DNA of 64,000 nt from a virus (IMGVR_UViG_3300046171_000225:32001-96000), one strand, 5' to 3'; positions 4,420 through 53,368 are shown, counted from the first letter of the stretch. A program made the numbers and translations. Notes: generated by a model not told the origin, from the letters alone.

Positions 4420-4462
4420 AGTAAATTTGGAACTATTTAAAGTAGTTAATTGGAGATGTTAA

Positions 4463-5190: not shown

Positions 5191-5265
5191 TACAGTAATG
5201 TAAAATAGGAATTTACTCTTTTATTGTACTATTTACTGATGAACGACTATTGTGAGGATTTTTTT

Positions 5266-6528
5266 ATGTCATCTTTACTTGATGAGGCTATCGTAGACGC
5301 TAAAGCTCTTAGAGAAGCAGTTCTTAAGAGTGCTGAAGCTTCTCTACTAGAGGCTTATGCGCCTAAAATACAAGAAGCAGTTGAGCAAATGCTAGAGCAG
5401 GACGAGATGGATCCTCTCGCTGCTATGGGAGAGCCAGCACCAGAGGGCGCTGAGGAAGAGACAGGTGATGTCTTCTCTGACCAAAAGGAAGAAGATCTCC
5501 CCGAGGAACTAGTTCAGGCAGCTATGATGGACGATGAGGATCAGGAAATTGATTTCGATCTTAGTGCTGGTGAGCTTCGCTCTATGATGGAGTCGGTACT
5601 TAAAGAGGTTGAGTCTGAGGACGAGACCTCTGAGGTCATCGAAGAGGGTATTGAGATTGATGAAGAAATTATTGCTCTTTTTGAGTCTGAGGAAGTAACC
5701 GAGACTACCGAAGAAGTCATCGAGGAAGCGAAAGAAGACGCTGACCCAGATGAGCTCTCCGACGAGGATGTCCTTGACACCACAGAGCCAAAGCATGATG
5801 ACGAAGGCAGCGCAATGCAGAAGCTGCTTAACAGATTGATGATGAGAGCTAAGGTTGATGGCATGGAGCCAGAGGTTGCCGCACAAGAGCTTGGATTGGA
5901 AGATGATCCTGAAGTTCTTGATCTTATCCGTGATATTCAAGATGATCAATTGCTAGACAATCCTAACATGGGCGATCTAGATGGCCTTCTTGAGAGGCTT
6001 GTCGTAGACATTATGCCACAGAAAAGCGGTTGGGCAGGCACACCAGAGTCTGTCATGAAGCACAATGAGAAGCTTGCAGCTGCAATGGCACAGTCTGACG
6101 AGTACAAAGAAGAAAGAGATGAACTTTTAAAAGTTGGTAGAGAGCTAGCTGAGTCCAACGAGAAGTTCCAGAATGCTAATACTAAGCTAATGGAAACCGT
6201 TGAGACTCTTGAGCAGAAGCTCAATGAGACTAACCTCTCCAACGCTAAACTACTTTATACGAACCGTATTTTGAGAAAGTCCTCCCTGAATGAGCGACAA
6301 AAGGAGACGATTGTCGAAGCTCTCTCTAATGCAGGTTCGGTAAACGAGGCGAAGGTAATTTTTGAGACCCTTCAAAGCACGGTGGGTTCGACTCGCAAGA
6401 GCGCACCACAATCACTAAGCGAAGCAGTATCTAGACCTTCATCTACTATACCGAGAAGAACAGTCCAAAGTGATTTCAATCCGTTTTCGGAAAGAATGAG
6501 ACTCTTGGCAGGTATCAATAAAAAATAA
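5266..6528 (+). CDS. Prohead scaffold/core protein (gp22-like)
   Basis: Acidic coiled-coil protein directly upstream of the capsid gene, ending ERMRLLAGI; ATG 5266 follows GAGGA. Confidence 0.75.
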   Translation: MSSLLDEAIVDAKALREAVLKSAEASLLEAYAPKIQEAVEQMLEQDEMDPLAAMGEPAPEGAEEETGDVFSDQKEEDLPEELVQAAMMDDEDQEIDFDLSAGELRSMMESVLKEVESEDETSEVIEEGIEIDEEIIALFESEEVTETTEEVIEEAKEDADPDELSDEDVLDTTEPKHDDEGSAMQKLLNRLMMRAKVDGMEPEVAAQELGLEDDPEVLDLIRDIQDDQLLDNPNMGDLDGLLERLVVDIMPQKSGWAGTPESVMKHNEKLAAAMAQSDEYKEERDELLKVGRELAESNEKFQNANTKLMETVETLEQKLNETNLSNAKLLYTNRILRKSSLNERQKETIVEALSNAGSVNEAKVIFETLQSTVGSTRKSAPQSLSEAVSRPSSTIPRRTVQSDFNPFSERMRLLAGINKK

Positions 6529-6547: not shown

Positions 6548-8377
6548 ATGTCTATTTTGAATAAATTGACTGAAGGCATTGTTAGCCGCGACCTCGCAAA
6601 AGAGGGAGCTGCACTTCAGTCCAAGTGGGAGAAGACTGGCCTACTAGAGGGCCTCACAGATGATCGTGAGCGCGCTTCTATGTCACGTCTTCTCGAGAAC
6701 CAAGCAAAGGAGCTTCTACGTGAGGTCTCCACCATGGCAGCTGGCGACGTCGAGGGTTTCGCTGCTGTTGCTTTCCCAATCGTTCGTCGCGTTTTCGGTG
6801 GCCTTCTCGCCAACGATCTCGTTAGCGTTCAGCCAATGAGCCTTCCATCAGGTCTCATTTTCTTCCTCGACTTTACATACAACACTGCACGCGGTGGCCT
6901 TGCTGCTGATGGCTCGTTGTATGGTGGTGGCGTTGTTGCTAGTCAGTTGACTGGTGGTGTGACGGACGTCACAGAAGCAGGTGGTGGTTTCTACAACCTT
7001 GCTAACGCTTATTCGCAAGGTACCGGATCACTCTCTATCGATGCTGATACATCAGCGGCTGGCTTCGCCAACATCACGGCTGATGATTACAGTACTGTTG
7101 CAACCGCGATTAGTGCATTCAACGGCTCAGAAGTTCAGATTGATGCTCTTTCGGAAGCTCAAAAGACTGCTCTTCGTTACGATCCTGATCTGCTTGCAGG
7201 CGGCCCGAATAAATTGACGACTGATGATGTTGTTGAGTTAATCGTTCGCGTGTCTAAGGCTGAAGCTGATAAGATGGATTTCAGAAACATGGGCGCATTT
7301 GACCTTGGTACGCTCCCTAACAGTGCTACCTTGTTACGCCGTCTCACGCACCTTGGAACCAAGGGAACTGATGGTGTCACTTTGTCGAATGCCAATCCTG
7401 AGTCTGCTCACGTTGCTATCACATTCTACATGGTAGGAACGGGTATCACGGCTGCTGGTCAGGATGCTACAACCCCCTTGACCTTGAGCTTCCCATTCAA
7501 GGATAGCTTTGCTACTGCTGACGCGATTGGCGGTGTAAAGGGTTCCCAGTTCCCACTTGAGCTTGCAACTGATACAGCTGCTGAGGCTGGAGCGCTAATT
7601 GATGTCATCCCTGAGATTGACATTAAGGTAGACAGCATCGCTGTCACAGCGGTTACCAAAAAGCTCAAGGCTAAGTGGTCACCTGAGCTTGGGCAGGATC
7701 TAAATGCGTACCACAACCTTGATGCTGAGGTTGAGCTTACGTCGATCCTTTCTGAGCAGATTGCTCTTGAGATTGACCGCGAGATCGTAGCTGATCTTAT
7801 TCAGGGTGCTACTGCTGGTACATTCTACTGGTCACGCTCCCCAGGTCTCTTCGTGAACCGCGTTACCGGTGCTGAGCTTGGCGCAACTTCGGCTGCTCCA
7901 GACTTCACTGGTACGGTTAGCGAGTGGTACGAGACTCTGATCGAGACCATCAACGATGTGTCGGCTCAGATCCACAGAAAGACACTACGTGGCGGTGCAA
8001 ACTTCCTCGTTACGTCTCCTGAGGTTGCCAACATCCTTGAGTTCACTGCCGGTTTCCGTGCTAATGTGACTCACGACTCTGATCGTGGCACTGTTGGTGC
8101 TGTTAACGTTGGTTCACTCTCCAAGAAGTTCGACGTGTACGTCGATCCATACTTCCCACGGAACGTTGTTCTTGTTGGCCGTAAGGGTGGTAGCTTCCTT
8201 GAGAGCGGCTACGTCTACGCTCCATACGTCCCACTACAGGTCACACCTACAATCTTCGGTGTCGAGGACTTCGTACCTCGCAAGGGCGTGATGACACGCT
8301 ACGCTAAGAAGATGGTACGTCCTGATATGTACGGACTTGTTGTATGTCGCGGCCTCCTCGGTGAGGAAGGTAGCTGA
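6548..8377 (+). CDS. Major capsid protein (T4 gp23-like)
   Basis: VSVQPMSLPSG, KLKAKWSPELGQDLNAYH, LEIDREI, YAPYVPL and GVMTRYA motifs; strong AGGAGG RBS. Confidence 0.96.
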   Translation: MSILNKLTEGIVSRDLAKEGAALQSKWEKTGLLEGLTDDRERASMSRLLENQAKELLREVSTMAAGDVEGFAAVAFPIVRRVFGGLLANDLVSVQPMSLPSGLIFFLDFTYNTARGGLAADGSLYGGGVVASQLTGGVTDVTEAGGGFYNLANAYSQGTGSLSIDADTSAAGFANITADDYSTVATAISAFNGSEVQIDALSEAQKTALRYDPDLLAGGPNKLTTDDVVELIVRVSKAEADKMDFRNMGAFDLGTLPNSATLLRRLTHLGTKGTDGVTLSNANPESAHVAITFYMVGTGITAAGQDATTPLTLSFPFKDSFATADAIGGVKGSQFPLELATDTAAEAGALIDVIPEIDIKVDSIAVTAVTKKLKAKWSPELGQDLNAYHNLDAEVELTSILSEQIALEIDREIVADLIQGATAGTFYWSRSPGLFVNRVTGAELGATSAAPDFTGTVSEWYETLIETINDVSAQIHRKTLRGGANFLVTSPEVANILEFTAGFRANVTHDSDRGTVGAVNVGSLSKKFDVYVDPYFPRNVVLVGRKGGSFLESGYVYAPYVPLQVTPTIFGVEDFVPRKGVMTRYAKKMVRPDMYGLVVCRGLLGEEGS

Positions 8378-12341: not shown

Positions 12342-15266
12342 ATGGCTGAAAAAAAGTTTAGATTTGTGTCACCAGGAATTTTTATTAACGAGGTTGATAA
12401 CTCACAACTTCCAAACGATTTACCTGATGTTGGACCTATCATCATCGGACGAGCAGAGTACGGCCCTGCGATGCGTCCAATCAGAATTAACTCACCTTCA
12501 GAGTTCGTTGAATTCTACGGTAACCCAATTGCCGGTGGTCGTGGCGATGACGTTTGGAGAGATGGAAACTATGTAGGCCCTACATACGGTGCTTACGCAG
12601 CTATGGCTTACCTCAGAGCAGGTGTTGGTCCTGTAAACTACGTTAGACTATTGGGTGCTGATACTGCAACTGCAACTGGCAACGGACAAGCAGGTTGGGG
12701 CACTGGTGGCGGAGCCTCTAATGAGATGGCTACTAATAAAACAGCACTAGGGCTCTTCTTATTCAACTCTTCCTCAGCTACCATGTACGATAATGATATT
12801 GGCACTGGTAATCTGGCTGCTGTATTTTACACTAATGGAGCTACTGTTGGCCTTGTTGGAAAGAATGGAGGTACCGCTTCCGACGAAGGCGTATTAGGTC
12901 TCATCGAATCTTCCGGTGATGGCCTAGAATTCACCGCAGCTGTGTCAGGGAGTGACAATACCCAATATAAGACGTCATTTAACTTTGATAGAAACTCTTC
13001 CAAGTACATTAGAAAAGTTTTTAATACCAATCCGCAATTGGTGCAAAGTGGGAGAGGAGCAACTCACACAAAAGCTTCTGACATTAGAAACTTAGCTGAT
13101 AAGTATTTCCTTGGAGAAACTTTTGAGAGATTTGCAACTTTAAGCACTACCGAAGGCGGTAATATCGCCAACACTAGTGCTGGTAAAGTGTATGGAATAA
13201 TCGTTCCTCTCGGCAAGACAACTTCTGAGGCTGATAACTTCGGATACAAGAGAAGAGGATTTGAAGACGGTCAAACAGGATTTGTTTTTTCACAAGATAC
13301 CTCAACTACTTCCACTGGGTTTGACGCAGTGAGTAGAACTCAACCCCTCTTCAAGATAAAAGCGCTTAATCATGCTGAGTGGGCCTCAAAGAATCTTAAG
13401 GTGTCTATCTCTGACATTAGAGCTGCTAGGAATGATATTGATGGATACGGCACCTTCACTGTTGAAGTTAGAATGGCAGGCGATAGCGATAATGTCCCAG
13501 AGATAATCGAACAATTCACCGGTTGTAACTTGAACCCTGCGTCAGAAGACTACATTGCTAAGAAAATTGGTGATAAGTACCTAGAGTGGAGAGAGTCAGA
13601 GCGTAGGCTAGTTCAGAGAGGCGAGTTTAATAACCAGTCTAAATACGTTTATATAGAAATGAATCAGCTAGTTGCTGATGGTTTGGCACCTCAGTCCTTG
13701 GTACCATTTGGCTTCTTCGGCCCAGTTAAGCCTAAGAACTTCTCTGTCTTCTCTGGAAGTGTTCACACATTCTTGAGTGGTGCTGGAGTTAACACGACAA
13801 GTACAAAAATAACGACTTTTGCGACCGGCACTTTTGCAGTGACAGGCGGATATGGAGTTTCTTCACCAGCAGTTGGTGGTGCGTTCATGCAGCAGATCGC
13901 AGACGGGTCAGGAAATGAGTTTACTGCTTCATTTGCATTCCCAAGTCTTTCTCTTCGCGAAAAGGCTTCTGATGGTGGAATGTCAGATCCAACAAGAGCA
14001 TATTTTGGTATTCAGACAACAATTACAAAAGACTCAATTAGATTTGACCCTGGATACGCTGATTATGTAAGAGGTGCTCCTGGCTCCGCTGGCGTCTTCA
14101 CTACTGGCTCTTCCTTCGAGTACTCATTCGTGTTTACTCTTGATGATGTTAAGAGCGGCGGTGAGTATGTCTCAGGCTCCAGATTGGCAGGAACTTCTAT
14201 CTCAGCCGTTAATAGCTCCCATAAGAACACTCTTGATAGCGGCTACAACAGATTCACAATGCCACTATGGGGTGGTCACGATGGTGTTGATATCAGTGAG
14301 CAGGAGCCATTTAACAATGTGGCTATCGGTAGCACTGCTAATCAAGATACAAGCTATGCTTACAACACTGTTAAGAGAGCAATTGATACCGTTGCAGACC
14401 CAGAGTTTGTAGAGGCTAACATTCTTTCTGTTCCAGGCGTAACACAGCCTATTGTTACAGATCATGTTCTTTCAGTTGCTGAAGGTCGAGCAGACTGTCT
14501 AGCAGTTATCGACATTCAGAATGTTTACGACCCTTCAACAGAGTCTACAAATACTTTTGCAGATAGAGTTGGATCAGTTTCAAGTGCCGTCTCCTCTCTA
14601 GAGCAGAGAAGAATTAACTCAAGCTACGGCTGTACATTCTACCCATGGGTTAGAATTAGAGACGACATTTCTAATGCTTCACTTTGGGTACCTCCTTCAG
14701 TCATCGCGATTGGTACATTTGCTTCCTCCGAGGCAAGAGCAGAGCTATGGTTTGCTCCAGCTGGATTCACAAGAGGTGGCTTGAGCACTGGAGCGGGTGG
14801 CTTCCCTGTACTCTCCACAACAGAGAGATTGAGAAGAGAAGACAGAGATGATCTATACGAAGTCAATGTCAACCCAATTGCTACATTCCCATCAGAGGGT
14901 ATCGTGGTCTTTGGCCAGAAGACACTTCAGGTAACTCCTTCTGCTCTTGACAGAATCAATGTTCGTAGACTTCTCATCTTCCTCAAGAAGAGAATTTCAA
15001 GAATCGCTGCATCGATCTTGTTCGACCAGAATGTTAGAACAACTTGGACTAGATTCAAGGCTGAGGCTGACAAGTTCCTCGGCTCTGTCCAAGCAAGACT
15101 CGGCCTTTCAGAGTTCAGAGTTCTTCTTGACGAGACAACTACAACACCAGATTTAGTAGATAGAAACATTTTGTACGCTAAGATTTTCCTCAAGCCTGCA
15201 AGATCTATTGAGTTCATCGCAATTGACTTTGTCATCACAAGGTCTGGTGCTTCTTTTGACGACTAA
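12342..15266 (+). CDS. Contractile tail sheath protein (gp18-like)
   Basis: N-terminal SPGIFINEVD; C-terminal WFAPAGFTRG, NVNPIATFP, FGQKTLQ and LDRINVRRL. Confidence 0.95.
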   Translation: MAEKKFRFVSPGIFINEVDNSQLPNDLPDVGPIIIGRAEYGPAMRPIRINSPSEFVEFYGNPIAGGRGDDVWRDGNYVGPTYGAYAAMAYLRAGVGPVNYVRLLGADTATATGNGQAGWGTGGGASNEMATNKTALGLFLFNSSSATMYDNDIGTGNLAAVFYTNGATVGLVGKNGGTASDEGVLGLIESSGDGLEFTAAVSGSDNTQYKTSFNFDRNSSKYIRKVFNTNPQLVQSGRGATHTKASDIRNLADKYFLGETFERFATLSTTEGGNIANTSAGKVYGIIVPLGKTTSEADNFGYKRRGFEDGQTGFVFSQDTSTTSTGFDAVSRTQPLFKIKALNHAEWASKNLKVSISDIRAARNDIDGYGTFTVEVRMAGDSDNVPEIIEQFTGCNLNPASEDYIAKKIGDKYLEWRESERRLVQRGEFNNQSKYVYIEMNQLVADGLAPQSLVPFGFFGPVKPKNFSVFSGSVHTFLSGAGVNTTSTKITTFATGTFAVTGGYGVSSPAVGGAFMQQIADGSGNEFTASFAFPSLSLREKASDGGMSDPTRAYFGIQTTITKDSIRFDPGYADYVRGAPGSAGVFTTGSSFEYSFVFTLDDVKSGGEYVSGSRLAGTSISAVNSSHKNTLDSGYNRFTMPLWGGHDGVDISEQEPFNNVAIGSTANQDTSYAYNTVKRAIDTVADPEFVEANILSVPGVTQPIVTDHVLSVAEGRADCLAVIDIQNVYDPSTESTNTFADRVGSVSSAVSSLEQRRINSSYGCTFYPWVRIRDDISNASLWVPPSVIAIGTFASSEARAELWFAPAGFTRGGLSTGAGGFPVLSTTERLRREDRDDLYEVNVNPIATFPSEGIVVFGQKTLQVTPSALDRINVRRLLIFLKKRISRIAASILFDQNVRTTWTRFKAEADKFLGSVQARLGLSEFRVLLDETTTTPDLVDRNILYAKIFLKPARSIEFIAIDFVITRSGASFDD

Positions 15267-15312
15267 AAATAAATTTTAAACTAATTACATTAGATAAGGG
15301 AGACAACAACTC

Positions 15313-15899
15313 ATGGCATCAGGTTTCTGGACATCCACAGATGTTTCACCAAAAAGAAAGTTTAGGTTTTTGCTTACCATTGGTAACATGCCTAATGGAG
15401 CTACGTGGTACACGAAAAGTGTTAACAAGCCAAAAGTGAGCATTAACTCTGTCGATCACAAGTTTTTGAACCACACTTTCAAATACCCTGGAAGTGTGAC
15501 TTGGAACGACATTACAGTTACTCTTGTCGACCCAGTTAGCCCTGATGCTGCTGCAAACCTCTCTAGAATTATACGAGAGTCGGGTTACCGCCCTCCTGTG
15601 GACGTTAACGATACTACTACAATATCTAAAAAGAACGCTGTAGAGGCTCTTGGTGCTGTTGTTATCACCCAGATTGACTCTGAGGGTGAGCCAGTCGAGA
15701 CATGGACACTTAACAATGCTTTCATTCTAGATGTCAACTATGGAGGCGATCTTGGCATACGGCTCAGATGATCTGACTGACGTCACAATCATATTCAAAT
15801 ACGATTGGGCTTCTATTGAGACAGCTAATCGCATCTGAGGCTGGCCCACTCCTTGGTGAGGCTTCCAGCAGATACTGGATGCCTGGACAGTCAAGCTAA
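15313..15899 (+). CDS. Tail tube protein (gp19-like), apparently frameshifted near 15754 and possibly near 15830
   Basis: PKRKFRF, KYPGSVTWNDITVTLVDP and ETWTL motifs. The expected C-terminus (AYGSDDLTDVTIIFKYDWA) lies in the +1 frame from 15755. Confidence 0.8.
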
Positions 15900-15915
15900 T
15901 TAGAAGAGGTGTTTT

Positions 15916-16740
15916 TTGACTAGAAGAAATAACCGGGCTAGGACAAGCTCTCCTGCCCCATTCGTGGCCGATGCTGGCCCGAAGCCACAGATAGACATGG
16001 CAAATCCCACAGAGTTTGTGGCTTTGCCTACCGGTGGCAAACTATATCCTCCTGGCCATCCTTTCTATCTGAGAGAGGAAGTAGAAATAAGATTCATGAC
16101 AGCAAAGCATGAAGACATTCTTTCTTCACAGGCACTCATTACAAGAGGAGTGGTACTTGACAGGCTCTTAGAGGCCCTTCTGGTCGATGATGTCGATGTC
16201 GATACCCTCTTGACTGGGGACAGAAATGCCATCTTCCTAGCGGCTAGAATCACGGCCTATGGCTCTGAATATCCTACTATCATAACATGCCCCTCATGTG
16301 GTGCAAAGAATGAATCTGAAGTAGATTTAAATACTTTTACACTTAGAGAGATACCAGAAGATATCCGACTCACAGAGAACGGAACATTCCTTGTAAAGCT
16401 ACCAAGATCTGGTAGAGAGCTAGAGATCAAGTGTTTGAGTATGAGAGAGCAAGAATACTTAACTAAGAATGCAGAAGCAAGAAGAAAGAATAATTTACCA
16501 GAAACTGCTAGAACTGACTTTTTGAAAATGGTTGTTGTTTCTATTGATGGAGAAACAAGTAAAACTATGATCAACTCTTTTATTAATGGACTACCAGCCG
16601 GTGACTCCTTACATCTAAGAAAAGTATACTCCTCCGTATCTCCTGACATAGACACAAAGCAAGATTACGAATGCCCCTCTTGCGGCACTACAACGGCTCT
16701 TGAGGTGCCGTTGGGTCTTAGCTTTTTTTGGCCTGTCTAA
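15916..16740 (+). CDS. Baseplate hub assembly/tail chaperone (gp26-like)
   Basis: LPTGGKLY, MTAKHEDIL, ARITAYG, two CPSCG motifs, ends FFWPV. Confidence 0.7.
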   Translation: MTRRNNRARTSSPAPFVADAGPKPQIDMANPTEFVALPTGGKLYPPGHPFYLREEVEIRFMTAKHEDILSSQALITRGVVLDRLLEALLVDDVDVDTLLTGDRNAIFLAARITAYGSEYPTIITCPSCGAKNESEVDLNTFTLREIPEDIRLTENGTFLVKLPRSGRELEIKCLSMREQEYLTKNAEARRKNNLPETARTDFLKMVVVSIDGETSKTMINSFINGLPAGDSLHLRKVYSSVSPDIDTKQDYECPSCGTTTALEVPLGLSFFWPV

Positions 16741-16906
16741 TAATTACATAGAGCAAGTCTATGAGCAGTTTTTCTTCCTGTCTTACCATGGAGGATGGTC
16801 TTTCATGGAAGCCTATAATCTCCCTATCCCGATCCGAGATTGGTTTGTTAAGCGACTTATAAAGCAAAAGAAGCAAGAAATGCCCCAGGATAAACAAGAA
16901 GCATAA
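16721..16906 (+). CDS. gp51-like small tail assembly ORF, probably reached by frameshift from the upstream gene
   Basis: YEQFFFLSYHGGWSFMEAYNLPIPIRDWFV; no credible start of its own; overlaps the upstream gene across a T7 run. Confidence 0.55.
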   Translation, partial: AFFGLSNNYIEQVYEQFFFLSYHGGWSFMEAYNLPIPIRDWFVKRLIKQKKQEMPQDKQEA

Positions 16907-16948
16907 TATTGTATTCTATACTATTTATAGTGATGGGGGCGTCTTAAT

Positions 16949-18481
16949 ATGATAGAACAAGTTCTGATAGATCAAGTTAAAGAGGCAATAAAAGACGGCT
17001 TCGCAGAGGTTGCAAGGTCTAACCCTGATGCCGTCCGAAAAGTCGTGGGAGGAGTGCAAGATGCTCAAGACCTAATTGATAATCTTAAACCTGAACTGTT
17101 AGAGCAAAACTTAAACCTTTTTAAGGGTCTGGGTACAGGTGCAGTCGAACTAACTGAAGGTATGTTGGGGTTATCGGTTGCCAGTAAAGCGCTGAGTACG
17201 GATCTTAATGCTTTGTCAGATCCATTTTTTGCAGTGGGGCAACAAGCAAAGGAAGCAGCAATACAATTTAATGCTGCTACTGGTTTTGGTGGTGAGTTTG
17301 ATGATGCTATTTTTTCTTTGAGAGAAAGCTTAAAAGGGTTTCCAGTCGATGCTCAGGATGTAAGTCAAGCAACCCAGCAACTATCTAAAGGGTTTACTGA
17401 CTTTACTCTTGGGGGGATTGGCCCAGCAGAAGAACGTATAGCAAAAACTGTAACTATACTTGGAAAGTTGGGCGCATCCATAGAAGACCAAACTACAATT
17501 GTTCAAGGCCTTAGAAAAGGTTTTTCTCAATCAGATGCTCAAATAGATATGTCTTTGAGAGAATTTGAAGCTCTGGCGGATACAATAAATGTAGATGTTG
17601 GGACAGTTATGTCCAACTTCGCAGCTCAAATTCCATTATTTGGAGCGTTTGGAGATAATGCAGTTAGTGCATTTAGAAGGCTGCAAATACAATCAAAAGG
17701 CACAGGATTGGAACTTAATAAGCTAGTTGGGATCAGTGAGAAGTTCACAACCTTTGAAGGGGCTACAGGTACAATTGGACAACTTAATCAATTACTTGGA
17801 GATATTGGGCTTTTGCCGACCGATCTTGTTGCAGCAGCAATGGAAGATCCTGCAGAAGCTGTGGCTCTGCTACAAGAAGCTCTTGGTGGCTTTGACGTAG
17901 AAAACCTTGGCGGAGGTATGAAGAGAGTTTTGGCAGACATCCTTGGTTTTGGAAATGATATCACAGGGTTTATCTCTTTTGCCAGAGGCAGCACTGATGC
18001 TCTTGAAGAACTGGGAATGCAAGCTGCTAAAACAGACACTGAGCTTCTTGACAGTATTAGGAAGGGCACTGATCCTGGGGCTATGGCGACAGCTATGGGA
18101 AGACTAGGGCTTTCTGTGGACGGCGTGGCAGAGCAAATATCAATACTTGAAGATGTAACTTTCGATAAAGCTATCACAGGAGCAGCGACACTCAGAGAAA
18201 CGATGGGAGCGATAAGTTTAGAGGCTGTAAAAACAAATGAAGCTGTACAAAAAATCTTACAGAAGGCAGGAAAAAATCCAATCACGACTCTGACAGACAA
18301 AGTAGATAGTCTTACGGGTGTTGATGTAAACGCACAGCTTACTCGAATCATAGAAGCAGAAAGAGAAGAGATGAAAAAAGCTCTTGTAGACTCTATTTCT
18401 AATATACAGGTCCATGTTTATCTAGACAGAAGCCAGTTGGCACAACAGATAGCCGCAGAATTTAGCACTGGAGGTATGTAG
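16949..18481 (+). CDS. Tape measure protein (putative)
   Basis: Ala/Gly/Leu-rich helical 510 aa after the chaperone genes; ACTATTTA at 16920. Confidence 0.65.
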   Translation: MIEQVLIDQVKEAIKDGFAEVARSNPDAVRKVVGGVQDAQDLIDNLKPELLEQNLNLFKGLGTGAVELTEGMLGLSVASKALSTDLNALSDPFFAVGQQAKEAAIQFNAATGFGGEFDDAIFSLRESLKGFPVDAQDVSQATQQLSKGFTDFTLGGIGPAEERIAKTVTILGKLGASIEDQTTIVQGLRKGFSQSDAQIDMSLREFEALADTINVDVGTVMSNFAAQIPLFGAFGDNAVSAFRRLQIQSKGTGLELNKLVGISEKFTTFEGATGTIGQLNQLLGDIGLLPTDLVAAAMEDPAEAVALLQEALGGFDVENLGGGMKRVLADILGFGNDITGFISFARGSTDALEELGMQAAKTDTELLDSIRKGTDPGAMATAMGRLGLSVDGVAEQISILEDVTFDKAITGAATLRETMGAISLEAVKTNEAVQKILQKAGKNPITTLTDKVDSLTGVDVNAQLTRIIEAEREEMKKALVDSISNIQVHVYLDRSQLAQQIAAEFSTGGM

Positions 18482-28841: not shown

Positions 28842-28928
28842 GGTGAGGTGTCCGAGTGGCTTAAGGATCCGGTCTTGAAAACCGGTGAGGGTTAACGCCC
28901 TCCGTGGGTTCGAATCCCACCCTCACCG
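28842..28928 (+). tRNA. tRNA-Ser (anticodon UGA), CCA not encoded
   Basis: GGTGAGG/CCTCACC acceptor stem, CCGGT-CTTGAAA-ACCGG anticodon arm, long variable arm, GGTTCGAATCC T-loop, G discriminator. Confidence 0.93.
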
Positions 28929-38645: not shown

Positions 38646-38666
38646 GATAAATAAACTATTTACTGT

Positions 38667-39917
38667 ATGCTAAACGGCATCAGTATACAATCACAGATAA
38701 GTCTTTTTATTTCTGCCCTCATTATGGCTCTCTTCTTTACGATGGAAGTGTTGGTTGTATTTGAGATCATCGCTGCAACTTATCACATCTCAGTGCTTGG
38801 TCTCTTTTGCCTTATGGCTTTTATGCCTCCGTGTGCTGTTGTTATTTCAGAGTTCCTTGAAAACATGCGACGAAAAGAGGAACTGGTCAACTCGCAGCTC
38901 GAAGGTATCAATAGTTCAAACTTAGTTGTGACCTTGACTATGGACGGCCATATACTAAAGGCCAACCCTAACTTTTGTGAACTTATGGGCTGTGACGAAG
39001 GCTATGTTATTATGCAGCCTCACAGAAAGATGGTCACTCCTGAATACTCTGAGAGTGACGAGTATGCTCACTTCTGGGCAAACTTACGAAAAGGCCGCAG
39101 CATCACAGGCAAGTTTGAAAGGGTTGCGAAGGATGGCTCGAAGCGATGGCTCTACGGCAACTATACTCCGATTAAGAATAAGTTTGGTACTTACGATAGG
39201 GTCTTGAAGATCGCAACTGACGTAACAACCGCACATTTAGTGGAGGAGATAGTTAGCCAAAAGACAGCGTATTTGGAACACGCTGCGAAGATCCTGCGTC
39301 ACGACATGCACTCTGGTATTAATACCTACCTTCCACGGGGCATCTCGTCTCTGAAACGCCGTCTGGACGACGAAACAATAAAAGAAAAGCGTCTTCAAAT
39401 GCCTATGAAACTTATTGAAGACGGACTTGTCCACACTCAGAAAGTTTATAAGGGCGTCTATGAGTTTACTAACTTGGTAAGGGAAGATACCACTCTTAGT
39501 AAAGAGGAACACAACATCAGAGAGATACTGGATGAGTATCTTCAATCTACTTCCTATGCAGACCAAGTTATCCTGTGCCCTGATCTTCCAACACTTCTTG
39601 TAAATGAAGCTCTGTTCTGTACTGCCGTAGATAATATGATTAGAAACGGCCTGAAATACAACGACTCTAAAACCAAGTATGTAAAAGTAATGATGGTTGA
39701 TGACGACACACTGGGCATCATAGACAACGGACGAGGGATGTCTCAGGAAGAATACCAGAGACTAAGCAAGCCTTACTTCCGGAGAGAGGGACAAAAAGAA
39801 GAAGGCACTGGCTTGGGTCTGAACATTACAGTTGCGATTTGTAAAGAACACGGCTTTGAACTCTCTGCTGAGAAGCGAGAAGAAGGCGGAACCATAATGA
39901 GGATAAAAGTAAAATGA
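38667..39917 (+). CDS. Membrane PAS-domain sensor histidine kinase
   Basis: Two TM helices, PAS (ILKANPNF...FWANLRKG...KDGSKRWLYGNYTPI), H-box LRHD, N-box DNMIRNGLKY, DNGRG and GTGLGL. Confidence 0.92.
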   Translation: MLNGISIQSQISLFISALIMALFFTMEVLVVFEIIAATYHISVLGLFCLMAFMPPCAVVISEFLENMRRKEELVNSQLEGINSSNLVVTLTMDGHILKANPNFCELMGCDEGYVIMQPHRKMVTPEYSESDEYAHFWANLRKGRSITGKFERVAKDGSKRWLYGNYTPIKNKFGTYDRVLKIATDVTTAHLVEEIVSQKTAYLEHAAKILRHDMHSGINTYLPRGISSLKRRLDDETIKEKRLQMPMKLIEDGLVHTQKVYKGVYEFTNLVREDTTLSKEEHNIREILDEYLQSTSYADQVILCPDLPTLLVNEALFCTAVDNMIRNGLKYNDSKTKYVKVMMVDDDTLGIIDNGRGMSQEEYQRLSKPYFRREGQKEEGTGLGLNITVAICKEHGFELSAEKREEGGTIMRIKVK

Positions 39918-41539
39918 AACTCCTACTTGAAAGATGGCGTCAATATGTAAACGAAGAACTTTTGAACGAACTCTCTCTCGAAGATGTTGAGAAAAGATTT
40001 GATTCAAAGAAGTTTTCAAAGGCTGTTAAGCGTTACGAAGTTTCCCCTGACTATGCAAAAGAACAGCTACTTGCTCGTATACCTAAAGACATTACCGAAA
40101 AAGATAAGGCTGGGGCACTTAACTGGCTGATCAGCCTTTTTGTAAAAGATCCTAAACAAGTGTTTGTTGATCCGGAAGGAAGGCCCATATCTCGCTCAAA
40201 AGTAACTGGTGATCTTGAACTTTTCTTCCAAATTAAGAAGCAAAATCTAGCTAGATTTCTTGACAAAAGAAGTTTGTCTAGAATGGAGTCTGTTTCCGAG
40301 TTAGGTAAAGTCGTAGATGCTGCTAGAGAGCCTTATAAAAAGCATATGGAAAAAAAGGATTACTTAGACGCTGAACAAGGCAAACTAAAAATCTTTGAAA
40401 ATGACGAATATAAAGTTTTCATTCCAACCAATAAAGGGGCAGCTTGCGAACTAGGTAAAGGGACGGAATGGTGTACTGCTGCGCCGGGACTGCATTATTA
40501 TGAACATTATCACAAAGAAGACGATCCTTTAATTATTTTTAAAAGCAAGACTGATTCTAAAAAAGATGTACAAGTGCATTTTGGAAGTCATCAATTCATG
40601 GATGTAAACGATGAAGATATCGGACAAGAACGCGCTGTTCGTCTTGCTAGTTTGTTGAAGGGTAATAAATACTTACCAAAAAAGGTCTTAAATATCATAG
40701 ATGAGATAGAATATATCTCTCTGGGTGATGGTAAGGAAATAATTGTTGATTTTACGGGCCATAAGCTCTGGTATCTAAACGGCAAATTTCACCGTGAAGA
40801 CGGTCCTGCTCTTGAGTCGCCTGAAGGTTATAAAGAATGGTACCTAAACGGCAAACAACACCGTGTGGGGGGTCCTGCCGTTGAAGACCCCGATGGCGCT
40901 GAAGCATGGTATCTAAACGGCAAACTCCACCGTGAAGATGGTCCTGCCAAAACAACCCGAGTCGGCATACAGGAATGGTGGCTGAGGGGCCAACGCCACC
41001 GTGTAGACGGCCCTGCTATTGTCGTACCAGGGGTTTCAGAAGCGTGGTACCTAAACGGCCTTCTTCATCGTGAAGACGGCCCTGCTCTGTCCAATGCCAC
41101 AGAAAAAAAGTGGTACTTAAAAAACTTTCTTCACCGTGTAGACGGCCCTGCCATTGAGAGAGCCGATGGCAGAAAGGAATGGCACCTGAGGGGCAAACTT
41201 TACCATAGGGAGCAGGCTGACGGCACAAAGAAGTGGTATCAGGACAGAGCTCTTCATCGCGAAGACGGCCCCGCTATTATATATCCAGATGGCTCAAAGG
41301 AATGGCATTTAAACGGCCAACAACACCGTGAAGATGGTCCTGCCATTGAGATGGCCAACGGCACAAAGATCTGGTACCTAAACGGCCTTCTTCATCGTGA
41401 AGACGGCCCTGCCATTGAGAGGCCCGACGGCGTCGGACCTATGGCAGACGGCTCAAAGGAATGGTTCCTAGATGGCAAACGCTATACCAAAGAACAGTAC
41501 GAAGAAGAAATGAAATCTAGAAAAGGAGAAGAAGGATGA
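39914..41539 (+). CDS. PcfJ-like domain plus about 10 'WYLNGxxHREDGPA' repeats
   Basis: AACELGKGTEWCT motif; tandem units of about 23 aa; ATGA-coupled on both sides. Confidence 0.7.
   Translation: MKLLLERWRQYVNEELLNELSLEDVEKRFDSKKFSKAVKRYEVSPDYAKEQLLARIPKDITEKDKAGALNWLISLFVKDPKQVFVDPEGRPISRSKVTGDLELFFQIKKQNLARFLDKRSLSRMESVSELGKVVDAAREPYKKHMEKKDYLDAEQGKLKIFENDEYKVFIPTNKGAACELGKGTEWCTAAPGLHYYEHYHKEDDPLIIFKSKTDSKKDVQVHFGSHQFMDVNDEDIGQERAVRLASLLKGNKYLPKKVLNIIDEIEYISLGDGKEIIVDFTGHKLWYLNGKFHREDGPALESPEGYKEWYLNGKQHRVGGPAVEDPDGAEAWYLNGKLHREDGPAKTTRVGIQEWWLRGQRHRVDGPAIVVPGVSEAWYLNGLLHREDGPALSNATEKKWYLKNFLHRVDGPAIERADGRKEWHLRGKLYHREQADGTKKWYQDRALHREDGPAIIYPDGSKEWHLNGQQHREDGPAIEMANGTKIWYLNGLLHREDGPAIERPDGVGPMADGSKEWFLDGKRYTKEQYEEEMKSRKGEEG
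40769..41480 (+). repeat. Tandem coding repeats of about 69 bp
   Basis: Recurring TGGTAYCTAAACGGC...CAYCGTGAAGAYGGYCCTGC. Confidence 0.9.
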
Positions 41540-41967
41540 TAAACTCTATTTTATTAGTTGATGATGAAAACCTATTTCATCTTGTATTTGAGGACGCTTG
41601 TTCTCTGTTAGACATTACCCTGAACTTGGAAAGCATTTCTTCTTCTGACGAGGCAGCAAGGTTATTCAAGGAATGGCAAACCCAGCCAGACAAAAAGCCT
41701 GAATGTGTTTTTGTTGATCTCAACATTGTTGGTTCTTCCTTTGACGGTATTGAACTAACCAGAAAGATCAACTTTGAATACGGCAACGGTGTTGTTATTG
41801 GTATTATTTCTTCGTCTGCGGACGATACTGAAATCGCCAAAGCAGTCCAAGCAGGGGCACAGTTCTGGATTGTAAAGTCAGATGACATTGAGCCAAGGCT
41901 TGAAGCATTCCACAAGGATTACCCTGCTTACAAAGACAGAACAGCACAGTTCAAGGTTTATAGATAA
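41536..41967 (+). CDS. Single-domain response regulator (receiver)
   Basis: LLVDD, phosphoacceptor VFVDL, DGIEL, ISSS and GAQFWIVK. Confidence 0.9.
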   Translation: MINSILLVDDENLFHLVFEDACSLLDITLNLESISSSDEAARLFKEWQTQPDKKPECVFVDLNIVGSSFDGIELTRKINFEYGNGVVIGIISSSADDTEIAKAVQAGAQFWIVKSDDIEPRLEAFHKDYPAYKDRTAQFKVYR

Positions 41968-41969
41968 CA

Positions 41970-42536
41970 ATGATTGTAATGACTGAAAGGGTCAAGGATG
42001 ACCTTATAAAGCTTGCGAAAGAAAGAAACATTTACCTTGAAGGCAACATTCTCAAAGTCATAGATACTGACGGCGATGCCGAGTTTGAGGCTTATGTCCA
42101 AGACGCCCTTCAGCAAGACAAGGTTACCCGTCGCAAGCGTCTGGAGATGACCAAACAAGTCCAACAGCAGAATAAAGAGTTGCTGGAGACACAAGAAGAA
42201 AAAGATGTTCTTATGGAAGAACTTCGCGAAGCCCTTCAGCAAGCAGAGGACGCCAAGGTAGAAGCTGAGAATGACCTTGATGTTCTTCAAAAGAAAACAC
42301 AGTTTGAACTTATCGGTCAGATCGTAACGGTTGCCCTTTGGATCATTATGGGCGTCGGCCTTACAACAACCGGTCTTTTCGTAGTGTCTATGTATACTGG
42401 TGTCGATACAACACTTATTGGAAATACTTGGTCAAATCTATTTGGAATCTTGCTAACAAACTCATTTAGTATTATAGGTACTATCATGGGTGTCAAATAT
42501 TCGTCTGAGAGTTCGCCTAGAAGTAGCAAAGAGTAA
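41970..42536 (+). CDS. Coiled-coil protein with two C-terminal TM helices
   Basis: Heptad Q/E/L region followed by two hydrophobic segments; follows the receiver gene. Confidence 0.7.
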   Translation: MIVMTERVKDDLIKLAKERNIYLEGNILKVIDTDGDAEFEAYVQDALQQDKVTRRKRLEMTKQVQQQNKELLETQEEKDVLMEELREALQQAEDAKVEAENDLDVLQKKTQFELIGQIVTVALWIIMGVGLTTTGLFVVSMYTGVDTTLIGNTWSNLFGILLTNSFSIIGTIMGVKYSSESSPRSSKE

Positions 42537-51173: not shown

Positions 51174-51812
51174 ATGTCTGAAGAAGTTGATCTGCCACAG
51201 GAGGTTACGGAATCCTTGGTTTTGGCAGATCCTGGTGCTTTGAATACTATAGGCCTTATTGGCGATGTTACCGAAGAGACGTCGAACGAGCTTATCTTTT
51301 CTCTACTCATGATGAAAGAGAAACAAGAGTTGGACTACTACACCGCCCTTGCAGTTTCGCAAGCGGAAGAAGATGTTGAAGAGCCAGAGAAGCCAGATAT
51401 TAATTTTTATATTTCTACAAACGGTGGCTCGGCAGACGAGATGTTTGCTATCTATGATGTCATGCGTCTTATCAAAAGTAGAGACGTGACCTCGGTTTGT
51501 ACTTATGGACTTGGAAAAGTTATGTCTGCAGGGGTTTTACTTCTTGCAGCAGGGACCAAGGGAAAGAGAAGAGTTGGCAAACATTGCAGAGTCATGATAC
51601 ATTCTGTTATCGGAGGGTCCACAGGGCCTATGCATCAGCTAGAGAATGAGTTTTCAGAGGTCAAGAAGATCCAGGATAACTACATAAGTGCTCTAGTTTC
51701 CGAGACTAATATGACAGAAGAATATCTAAGAGACCTATTGAAGAAGAAGATAAATGTTTACCTGTCTGCTGAAGAAGCAGTCGAACTTGGAATCGCAGAC
51801 GAAGTGTGCTAG
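51174..51812 (+). CDS. clpP: ClpP-like protease subunit
   Basis: FYISTNGG, VMSAG (catalytic Ser), MIHS and YLSAEEAVELGIADEV. Confidence 0.88.
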   Translation: MSEEVDLPQEVTESLVLADPGALNTIGLIGDVTEETSNELIFSLLMMKEKQELDYYTALAVSQAEEDVEEPEKPDINFYISTNGGSADEMFAIYDVMRLIKSRDVTSVCTYGLGKVMSAGVLLLAAGTKGKRRVGKHCRVMIHSVIGGSTGPMHQLENEFSEVKKIQDNYISALVSETNMTEEYLRDLLKKKINVYLSAEEAVELGIADEVC

Positions 51813-51820
51813 GAGGTACA

Positions 51821-53368
51821 GTGTCTAAGAAATATTGCTCTAATCAAGAACTAGAAAGTAGAATCGCCAGCGGGATCAATAAGTTGGCAGATAATGTGGC
51901 CTCTACCCTTGGCCCAAGAGGAAGGAACGTTATCCTTCAGAAAAAGGATTCTAATCCAATCGTAACAAAAGACGGAGTCACAGTAGCCGAGTTTGTAGAG
52001 CTTGAAGATCCGTTTGAGAATCTAGGTGCTCAAGTCATCAAGCAGGCTTCGAGAGTTACTAACGCAGAAGCTGGCGATGGCACTACTACAGCCACGGTCT
52101 TGGCTAGGGCGATGTACCGGAACGCCAGAAAGTATATTTCTTCTGGTCATGCTCCTATTCAGATCAAGCGCGAGATGGATAAGACTGTTTCTGAAGTTGT
52201 AGAGAGTCTTTCGGAGCTTGCAAGTCCTATTTCTTCTATTGAAGACATCCGTCATATTGCTACTATCTCAGCCAACAATGATCCTGAGATAGGTGAACTA
52301 ATTGCAAAAGCAGTTGAAAGTGTTGGCAAGGATGGCTCTATCACTGTCGAAGAAGCACGCTCTCTTCAGACTAGCCTAGACTTGGTAGAGGGCTTTAGGC
52401 TTGGCTCTGGCTATGCTTCTAGTTCCTTTATCACTGATGAGCGTCGTGGGGCTGTCGTATACGAAGATGTATTTGTTTTAGTTGCTGATGCTAAGATTGA
52501 TAAGGTAGACGACATTCTACCTGTCTTGGAAGTTATAGCGAGGGAGGGACGACCTTTGGTGATCGTCGCTTCAGATATTGAAGGGCAGGCACTAGCTGCT
52601 TTGATTATGAATAGTATGCGTGGAACAATGAAGGTAGCTGCTGTTAAGGCTCCCGGCTATGGCGAAGAGAGAAGAGGTATCTTGAACGACCTTTGTTTGA
52701 CCACTGGTGCTACTTATGTCACTAGATCTAGTGGCCTCAAGCTAAAAGAGGTAACTCTAGAGCATCTAGGTATGGCTAAGAAAATTGATATAACAAAGGC
52801 AGTTACTACAATTGTGGGAGGCAAAGGAGACTACGCCGAGGTCGATAGAAAAATCGAAGCCCTCAAGATCGAAGCTGCACAGACCGATTCGATGAATGAA
52901 GCTGAAAGAATTCAGCAGAGAATCACTAGACTTGCTGCTGGTATTGCTATCATCCGAGTAGGCGCTGCCACTGAAGTCGAGATGATAGAAAAGAAACATC
53001 GTATTGAAGATGCCTTAGAAGCAGTCAAGGCTGCTAGAGATGAAGGCATTGTTCCCGGTGGCGGTGTTGCTCTTGTCCGTACCGTCCCTAAGGGCAAACT
53101 CACTGGTGCTCAGGCTGTTGTTTACGATGCTATATGCGAGCCGATTAGGCAGATGGCCTTCAATGCTGGTGAAAGCCCAGACGTAGTCCTAGACAGAGTC
53201 AAGAAACTTAAAGGCTCTAAAGGGTGGGACTTTAACGATAGTAAGGTTGTAGATATGCTTGAACAAGGCGTTATTGATCCTGTGAAGGTTACTAGAACAG
53301 CATTGCAGAATGCTTGCTCAGCAGTTGGGGCTCTCATAACTAGTGGCTATGCCATTGTGGAGGACTGA
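51821..53368 (+). CDS. groEL: Chaperonin GroEL
   Basis: TLGPRGRNV, TKDGVTVA, GDGTTTA, KAPGYG, GIVPGGG and IDPVKV; GTG after AGGAGG; no GGM tail. Confidence 0.95.
   Translation: MSKKYCSNQELESRIASGINKLADNVASTLGPRGRNVILQKKDSNPIVTKDGVTVAEFVELEDPFENLGAQVIKQASRVTNAEAGDGTTTATVLARAMYRNARKYISSGHAPIQIKREMDKTVSEVVESLSELASPISSIEDIRHIATISANNDPEIGELIAKAVESVGKDGSITVEEARSLQTSLDLVEGFRLGSGYASSSFITDERRGAVVYEDVFVLVADAKIDKVDDILPVLEVIAREGRPLVIVASDIEGQALAALIMNSMRGTMKVAAVKAPGYGEERRGILNDLCLTTGATYVTRSSGLKLKEVTLEHLGMAKKIDITKAVTTIVGGKGDYAEVDRKIEALKIEAAQTDSMNEAERIQQRITRLAAGIAIIRVGAATEVEMIEKKHRIEDALEAVKAARDEGIVPGGGVALVRTVPKGKLTGAQAVVYDAICEPIRQMAFNAGESPDVVLDRVKKLKGSKGWDFNDSKVVDMLEQGVIDPVKVTRTALQNACSAVGALITSGYAIVED

Follow-up and report, generated by a model that had tools for sequence, protein, structure and literature searches.

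Single-domain response regulators such as CheY, DivK and Spo0F often act on varied partners. A sensor kinase that governs membrane integrity is exemplified by LytSR of staphylococci and Bacillus, which controls the holin-like and antiholin-like proteins LrgAB and CidAB, LytR being a LytTR-type DNA-binding regulator that acts on transcription. As for phages, the time of lysis is known to be set by holin clocks, to which T4 and a small number of other phages add antiholins that sense superinfection. Here we describe a gene cassette located at positions 38667-42536 of a stretch of 64,000 nucleotides (nt) from the virus IMGVR_UViG_3300046171_000225 (32001-96000 of that record). This whole stretch is referred to as the window, and its numbering is used for all positions. 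The cassette encodes a sensor histidine kinase, a lone receiver and a membrane protein of 188 amino acid residues (aa) built as a head, a stalk and a membrane hairpin. In our judgement the chances are about even that these three proteins form a working, phage-specific relay, running from the kinase through the receiver to the hairpin, whose most likely use would be to set the timing or the extent of membrane permeabilisation or lysis.

The closest described systems resemble this cassette in different respects. Like CheA/CheY-FliM, DivJ/DivK and Spo0F, it combines the N, G1 and G2 boxes of a class I transmitter, and a putative H-box, with a receiver that has the DD/D/S/K residues and no output domain, and whose output would presumably be achieved by binding. 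It differs from the CheY-type systems in being encoded by a lytic-type myovirus, in an H-box to which the Pfam HisKA model is blind, in a 25-residue tail of the receiver and in the proposed head-stalk-hairpin target. With LytSR and LrgAB/CidAB it has in common a sensor kinase and a regulator coupled to small membrane proteins that affect integrity or lysis; however, the phage receiver has no DNA-binding domain, and its control would be post-translational. Pfam searches found neither the LytTR nor the LytS 5TM-Lyt domain in the cassette proteins, and Pfam and PHROGs revealed no sequence relation of the 188-aa protein to LrgA, LrgB or CidA. Finally, T4 lysis inhibition (holin T, antiholins RI and RIII) is likewise a phage-encoded, signal-responsive retiming of lysis through membrane proteins, but it works by direct periplasmic or cytoplasmic binding with no phosphorelay, and no PHROG family matches the 188-aa protein. 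A literature search, to which subscription journals were largely out of reach, returned no description of the cassette. Relative to the literature searched, its ownership by a lytic-type phage, its hairpin output and modular grammar, and its lysis context are new, while its parts are of the known two-component kind.

The cassette and its proteins

The interval consists of four genes, all on the plus strand and all with intact reading frames, which encode a 416-aa kinase, a 541-aa open reading frame (ORF), a 143-aa receiver and the 188-aa membrane protein. A preliminary description of this DNA had named a PAS kinase with two transmembrane (TM) segments, a lone receiver and a coiled-coil protein with two TM segments, and all of the features ascribed to them were indeed present, but it overlooked the 541-aa ORF, which is placed between kinase and receiver and takes up 42% of the interval. 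The tight coupling of the genes that it reported is borne out as well: the kinase/541-aa gene and 541-aa gene/receiver junctions are 4-nt overlaps (ATGA), the receiver gene is followed by the 188-aa gene after a gap of 2 nt, and a promoter-like motif is located 4 nt before the kinase ATG.

The sensor histidine kinase (38667-39917) starts with a hydrophobic stretch at residues 4-64, which by hydropathy is consistent with two TM segments and hardly any external loop between them. It continues with a PAS domain (aa 83-190), a dimerisation and histidine phosphotransfer (DHp) domain with His212 and a catalytic ATPase domain (aa 317-415). Both PAS_3 (4e-11) and HATPase_c (1.2e-14, 55 bits against a cut-off of 26.4) are matched in Pfam. 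The H-box region YLEHAAKILRHDMHSGINTY (39270-39329) with its core ILRHDMHSGINTY is invariant across the 22 orthologues aligned, and so is RHDMHSG with its His212-Asp213 pair, in which His212 (codon 39300-39302) is the predicted phospho-acceptor, the register against SHELRTPL having been set by eye. As none of the Pfam models HisKA, HisKA_2 and HisKA_3 matches the window kinase, calling this H-box atypical was fair. The N box (DN.IRNGL.YND), G1 box (DNGRG) and G2 box (G.GLGLN) are invariant in the same 22 proteins, and the F box ((K/E)PY.R) is conserved, one K-to-E replacement being its sole change. Judging by these four boxes and the HATPase_c match, the protein carries the catalytic ATP-binding domain of a class I histidine kinase.

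The PAS domain (38913-39236) had previously been suggested to sense redox or energy state. Among solved structures it is best matched by the PAS-A domain of MmoS, which binds flavin adenine dinucleotide (FAD) (3EWK, 3e-17), and next by Aer (8DIK), and it can thus be compared with the FAD-PAS domains of Aer, MmoS and NifL. The flavin contacts are H53, N85 and R115 in Aer, equivalent to H132, N164 and R195 in MmoS, with the His under the flavin ring, the Asn directed to N3/O4 and the Arg near N5 (PMC9668731). Of these three contacts the window PAS and its 22 orthologues keep only the His (His119); at the other two positions, Asn and Arg in Aer and MmoS (PMC9668731), they have an invariant Arg152 and an invariant Ala183, respectively. 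With two of the three residues replaced, we rejected flavin-based redox sensing by the window kinase, and the earlier suggestion finds no support in this copy; the ligand of this PAS domain is probably not flavin. The PAS alignment in fact splits the family into two types. All three flavin residues are present in one relative, L090, and in the first PAS of another, L087. The window type, which we call type B, also occurs in L002 and L003, in L087 as the second PAS, and in a one-component fusion described below, where both PAS domains belong to it.

The receiver (41536-41967) matches Pfam Response_reg with 39.7 bits, the cut-off being 30.2. Its residues D9, D10, D61, S92-94 and K114 are invariant in 38 sequences, which show a mean column identity of 84%, and Asp61 (codon 41716-41718) is the predicted phospho-acceptor. 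Past the receiver fold there is only a conserved 25-residue C-terminal tail (DIEPRLE.F..DY) and no output domain. Both the full catalytic set and the missing output domain had been noted before, and together with the fold they place this protein among the CheY-like single-domain response regulators.

The 188-aa protein (41970-42536) has hydrophobic segments at residues 111-141 and 157-175. Its AlphaFold2 model, with a predicted local distance difference test (pLDDT) score of 82.6, shows a small head, a single helix that spans residues 37-143 and continues straight into TM1, and then a tight turn followed by TM2. We divide it into an N-terminal head with a basic helix (aa 1-70; 41970-42179), a coiled-coil stalk (aa 71-112; 42180-42305) and a TM hairpin (aa 113-180; 42306-42536). 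Among 37 relatives, with a mean column identity of 58%, the head and the basic stretch are conserved (EGN.LK ... RRKRL.(V/I/M)TKQVQ.QN), the stalk differs in length by up to about 46 residues, and TM2 is nearly invariant (WSN.(F/V/L)(G/S)ILLTN.FSI.GTIMG(V/I)K). We propose that the head is an input domain for receiver docking and that the hairpin is the membrane effector. A fold search with the model returned nothing from the PDB at E up to 0.001 and nothing but a homologue from BFVD. A 167-aa gene found after the receiver in relatives was considered as a counterpart of the 188-aa gene and rejected: BLAST detected no relation, and the true homologue is one or two genes further.

More than 100 orthologues of the kinase were found at about 60% identity, and almost all have the same length of 416 aa. 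A scan of IMG/VR with the single protein gave no matches and an alignment-based scan was required, which recovered at least 561 loci at 50-65% kinase identity. Kinase, receiver and 188-aa homologue follow one another in this order in 76 of the 76 viral loci with enough flank, and the three genes named earlier as a module do form a conserved one. Between the receiver and the hairpin gene, relatives may have a 4-TM protein of about 165 aa and a rhodopsin, both optional. The sensor end also varies among them (one or two PAS domains, no TM segments, a second, periplasmic kinase), while the receiver and the hairpin protein are constant. The ratio of nonsynonymous to synonymous substitution rates (dN/dS) was determined against close relatives and came to 0.05 for the kinase; values for the receiver were 0.04-0.11, and those for the 188-aa protein 0.02-0.10. 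The cassette is under purifying selection and is not decaying.

The nearest Atlas clusters are all viral. Relatives of the 188-aa protein are few, a profile search of 1.84 billion cluster representatives having yielded no more than 255. In 50,697 deposited phage records, searched as both DNA and protein, the receiver and the 188-aa protein had no match and the kinase matched only unrelated PAS/ATPase fragments. The family is abundant in aquatic viromes, as the IMG/VR loci indicate, yet it occurs in none of the deposited phage genomes searched, and it has thus escaped experiment. A motif scan of one genome for each of 185,579 prokaryote species gave seven loci, four of which (L086, L087, L089 and L090) carry the hairpin protein. 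The flanks read for L087 and L090 are phage-like, and these two look like phage contigs binned into metagenome-assembled genomes (MAGs). The only clearly chromosomal copy is L088 (6150-9550 of a 967-kb contig from a Bacteroidetes MAG). Its kinase has several PAS domains, its receiver shares 67% identity with that of the window, and around them are ordinary cellular genes, for TauE, SoxA-type cytochrome c, TetR and ABC1. A search of 200 other genomes from the same order gave no receiver homologue.

As to the window itself, the record to which it belongs is 163,026 bp long, with a completeness of about 90% as estimated by CheckV. A major head protein (6548-8377) and a tail sheath (12342-15266) are encoded on the same strand as the cassette, as are a head-tail adaptor, DnaB helicase, ribonucleotide reductase, ThyX, a DnaE-type polymerase and GroEL. 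This agrees with the phage origin assumed from the outset, and judging by its genes the source is a tailed phage with a contractile tail, a lytic-type myovirus of about 163 kb. The neighbours of the cassette are ThyX, small ORFs with no assignment, glutaredoxin, two unassigned proteins and DnaE.

Candidate output of the proposed relay and its lysis context in relatives

The role of the 188-aa protein is best approached through its domain fusions. Its head and stalk are fused to a HisKA-HATPase kinase in four proteins (P0417, P0430, P0432 and P0433), and two of the three such fusion genes examined directly follow a 143-aa receiver gene. A variant cassette (L105:179-2523; L106:118-1505) consists of a 2-TM kinase with no PAS domain, a receiver, a head-stalk-HisKA-HATPase fusion and then an AraC-type regulator. 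The L105 receiver is 75% identical to that of the window, and the transmitter of the kinase preceding it is 58% identical. This variant is possibly a kinase-receiver-kinase cascade and probably cellular. At the other end of the protein, the stalk and hairpin are fused to PAS-PAS (P0335), PAS (P0341) or GAF (P0320), and the genes for P0335 and P0320 are found on phage-like contigs with no kinase or receiver adjoining. Downstream of both one-component fusions, PAS-PAS-stalk-hairpin (L103:4911-6026) and GAF-stalk-hairpin (L104:5001-6083), wall hydrolases of the GH19 or glucosaminidase kind are encoded at a distance of 0.8-1.8 kb. Taken together, the fusions imply that the head is an input domain which follows the receiver, while the hairpin is an output that a sensor domain can also drive directly. 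They point to a receiver that would act on the head of the 188-aa protein, and to a head that would gate the hairpin. The idea that the two-TM protein is the output was part of the preliminary description; the domain fusions and the gene neighbourhood speak for it, and co-folding of the receiver with the 188-aa protein adds weak support.

We thus envisage the following course of events. A signal would be read through the cytoplasmic PAS domain, whose ligand is probably not flavin, or through the two TM helices, upon which the membrane-anchored kinase would autophosphorylate on His212 and pass the phosphate to Asp61 of the lone receiver. The phosphorylated receiver might then dock on the N-terminal head of the 188-aa protein, and the resulting change might run along the single long helix to the 2-TM hairpin, altering the activity of the hairpin in the inner membrane of the host. 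Such a change would most likely serve to set the time or the extent of membrane permeabilisation and lysis. In this manner the cassette probably allows the phage to match a membrane event, lysis for example, to a signal that it senses. A bolder form of the proposal, which we put forward tentatively, is that large aquatic phages own a private phosphorelay which gates a new membrane-hairpin effector by contact, with no transcription involved, and that it serves as a signal-dependent lysis switch, light-dependent in those lineages that carry a rhodopsin.

If this were true, a complete, virus-owned two-component relay with a new membrane partner would represent a principle of lysis timing unlike holin clocks and antiholins. 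A modular sensor, be it PAS, GAF, a periplasmic domain or perhaps rhodopsin, would let the phage act on the membrane post-translationally. The head-stalk-hairpin protein also shows a reusable signalling grammar, in which an input domain and a coiled coil are followed by either a hairpin or a kinase.

What connects the relay with lysis is the company it keeps in relatives. We inspected 3.5 kb flanks on each side of 35 representative loci, de-duplicated at 92% kinase identity. The upstream flanks (147 ORFs) contained 11 matches to Amidase_2, 10 to Phage_holin_4_1 and 9 to PG_binding_1, and the downstream flanks (150 ORFs) five holin matches and several wall hydrolases. By homology, an Amidase_2 endolysin and/or a Phage_holin_4_1-like gene is present within about 1.4 kb in 19 of the 35 loci, the usual order being a 293-aa endolysin (PG_binding_1 plus Amidase_2), a holin-like protein of about 140 aa, a membrane protein of 66 aa and then the kinase. 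Since a genome of 150-300 kb has one lysis cassette, this frequency, along with the position of both one-component fusions, is far above chance. Lysis timing is thus the role that we favour for the family. The link to lysis timing suggested previously is backed by gene context in these relatives, but not by the surroundings of the cassette in the window phage.

Several observations weigh against the proposed relay or its use in lysis. Near the cassette of the window phage we found no endolysin or holin. Searches of the whole 163-kb record for Phage_holin_4_1, Peptidase_M15_3, Peptidase_M23, Phage_lysozyme and Amidase_2 all came back empty, and the only PG_binding-like stretch in the record is about 58 kb away. 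The 188-aa protein matches no Pfam or PHROG family above threshold, holin families included. In the L088 genome the hairpin protein was not found beside or apart from the kinase and receiver, which means that a receiver of this kind can work with another output. TM segments are missing from the L090 kinase; this speaks against a contact between kinase and hairpin that is purely intramembrane, and is silent on the route through the receiver. The result of co-folding belongs here as well. For the receiver with residues 1-112 of the 188-aa protein the ipSAE score was 0.52, against 0.00 for the best control, three runs agreed and the pLDDT of the partner was at least 87, which was rated as weak support. 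In calibration, the mark was passed by 58 of 80 solved complexes and by 2 of 110 mismatches, and at 0.60 or below there were seven solved and two mismatched pairs; the score obtained is in a band that is more often wrong than right unless a strong prior exists.

How, then, might the same genes be explained otherwise? One plausible alternative is that the relay works as proposed and that the hairpin does something other than promote lysis, for instance influencing membrane energetics or ion flow, excluding superinfecting phages or re-siting membrane proteins. The window cassette is placed among genes of nucleotide metabolism and replication (ThyX, glutaredoxin, DnaE), 16 of the 35 representative loci have no lysis gene in the flanks covered, and the rhodopsin and 4-TM insertions of some relatives fit an energy or ion theme as well as they fit lysis. 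Nevertheless, the endolysin and holin genes beside 19 loci and the wall hydrolases near both one-component fusions exceed chance so far that we rate such a role as possible but rather unlikely.

It is also conceivable that the 188-aa protein is not the target of the receiver at all, being a kinase accessory or an independent protein, and that the receiver acts on host proteins, through cross-talk or as a phosphate sink. Single-domain receivers do often have varied partners, bacterial L088 lacks the hairpin protein, the receiver-head co-fold is weak, and the stronger conservation of the receiver (84%) than of the hairpin protein (58%) would fit a conserved host target. However, a gene with the head domain directly follows the receiver in three architectures (that with the hairpin, kinase fusion P0417 and kinase fusion P0430/L105), and the one-component forms, in which PAS or GAF sensors are coupled straight to the hairpin, mark the latter as an output and not as an accessory of the kinase. 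We find this explanation unlikely.

Less probable still is that the 188-aa protein is simply the holin of the window phage, which the kinase and receiver merely tune. No holin family is detected anywhere in the 163-kb record, and the protein does have two TM segments with a polar, near-invariant TM2. On the other hand, its 110 cytoplasmic residues of head and stalk before the TM pair are unlike known holins, it has no match to a holin family and no endolysin was found nearby. Moreover, in relatives the cassette has a distinct Phage_holin_4_1-like gene as its immediate neighbour, and as the record is about 90% complete, the real holin may be missed or unrecognisable. The last option, an ordinary bacterial operon picked up recently, of no use to the phage and decaying, had been named in the preliminary description as what would refute its reading; it was rejected and seems hardly tenable, for although a chromosomal homologue exists in one Bacteroidetes MAG, the at least 561 viral loci compare with seven among the species genomes (four of them with the hairpin protein), the receiver is in none of 200 other genomes from the order of that MAG, all frames are intact, and dN/dS values are 0.02-0.11; the nearest homologues are viral and not ordinary, decaying bacterial operons.

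Upstream motif and insert slot

The promoter-like motif ACTATTTA (38655-38662, plus strand) is enriched in the window, with 14 copies against 2.9 expected, a number reached in none of 100 shuffles. Genome-wide there are 26 copies, 23 of them on the coding strand, and 14 of the 26 fall in the intergenic 6.5% of the genome (13 by a crude gene call plus the copy at 38655, flagged there only by a spurious 54-aa ORF). The motif and its 4-nt distance to the kinase ATG are kept in three phages that are 92-94% identical to the window at the DNA level (L100, L101 and L102), although the upstream DNA differs. The distances to gene starts form two classes, 3-5 nt and 19-55 nt, with the kinase in the short one. 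All of this fits a putative phage-specific promoter element, which in the short-gap class may give near-leaderless transcripts. The motif also precedes the sheath gene and other structural genes, and this is the single pointer to the late expression of the cassette that had been supposed; such expression may thus be suspected. A scan of 38-45 kb for consensus terminators and sigma-70 promoters gave no more matches than chance.

Copies of the motif in the window include those at 4432, 5228, 8453, 12299, 16920, 38655, 50352 and 54693. An ORF called at 5224-6528 from a TTG start probably has its true start at ATG 5239, 3 nt past one of these copies. GGAG-like sites occur upstream of several genes of the window phage.

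The 541-aa gene (39914-41539) combines an N-terminal domain from a large, virus-rich and often multi-copy family with ten repeats of the W.L.G..HREDGPA type. It was considered as a core member of the module and rejected: it is missing from all 84 other loci compared, and its slot is hypervariable. In the three close relatives mentioned above, the same slot is occupied by a 160-aa gene (L100 and L101; L100:1406-1888) or by a 477-aa homologue together with a 133-aa gene (L102:3008-4839). Since the slot is so variable within the lineage, the 541-aa gene is probably a passenger, and the ATGA overlaps on both of its sides would keep translation of kinase and receiver coupled. All slot inserts start with MKLLLE(N/R)W(R/K) and are otherwise unrelated; this common start could be a handle for recombination, or else a tag for targeting or processing. 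At C1:123693 the genome has a further ORF, of 572 aa, with the similar start MKKILESWRLY. DUF6745 is below threshold with the whole 541-aa protein, while the repeat half alone passes the cut-off. Pfam PcfJ (PF14284) gave no match even at E up to 10; the Atlas offered, at 0.83, a lead only, to a cluster in which PcfJ is found in 26% of members.

Additional genes in relatives and in the window phage

Many relatives have further membrane proteins in the cassette. A 4-TM protein, about 165 aa long and with a coiled coil at its C-terminus, follows the receiver (L002:11691-12194; L003:11697-12200), and the 66-aa membrane protein directly precedes the kinase (L002:9800-10000); neither is present in the window phage genome. 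In L087 (3923-7510) two kinases come before the receiver, one with the layout 2TM-PAS(FAD-type)-PAS and the other with a signal peptide or periplasmic coiled-coil region, one TM segment and no PAS domain. L003, a 214-kb relative, has at 13425-18038, just downstream of its cassette, genes for a tyrosinase and for a protein of 684 aa bearing a CHU_C sorting domain (type IX secretion). This hints at a Bacteroidota host for that lineage.

Four related phage lineages carry a compact 7-TM rhodopsin gene of 192-195 aa inside the cassette, between the 4-TM and hairpin genes (L003:12200-12787, L004, L005, L018:6529-7107, L019, L023 and L032:9177-9758). A PF01036 search of the 163-kb record found no rhodopsin in the window phage, and the literature search, within the same limits of access, found no phage rhodopsin of this cassette kind described. 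The proteins match Pfam Bac_rhodopsin (1.8e-13), and their nearest solved structure is the viral rhodopsin OLPVRII (5.5e-21). A rhodopsin beside 2-TM and 4-TM coiled-coil proteins and a kinase-receiver pair is reminiscent of the sensory rhodopsin-Htr-CheA/CheY module and of the viral rhodopsins OLPVRII and OLPVR1; the differences are that the window genome has no rhodopsin, that the hairpin protein has its coiled coil before the TM pair, and that no HAMP or MCP domain is present. Counterparts of bacteriorhodopsin R82, D85, T89, W182, Y185, D212 and the Schiff-base Lys are invariant in the relatives' rhodopsins, that of P186 is nearly so, and the proton-donor position is occupied by Gln (D-T-Q motif). 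The clade is small, with 46 proteins of 116-250 aa, and its close relatives of full length measure 187-198 aa.

Outside the cassette, the window phage encodes a tRNA-Ser with anticodon TGA (28842-28928), and its GroEL homologue (51806-53368) is full-length and matches PHROG 5725 (1.7e-142).

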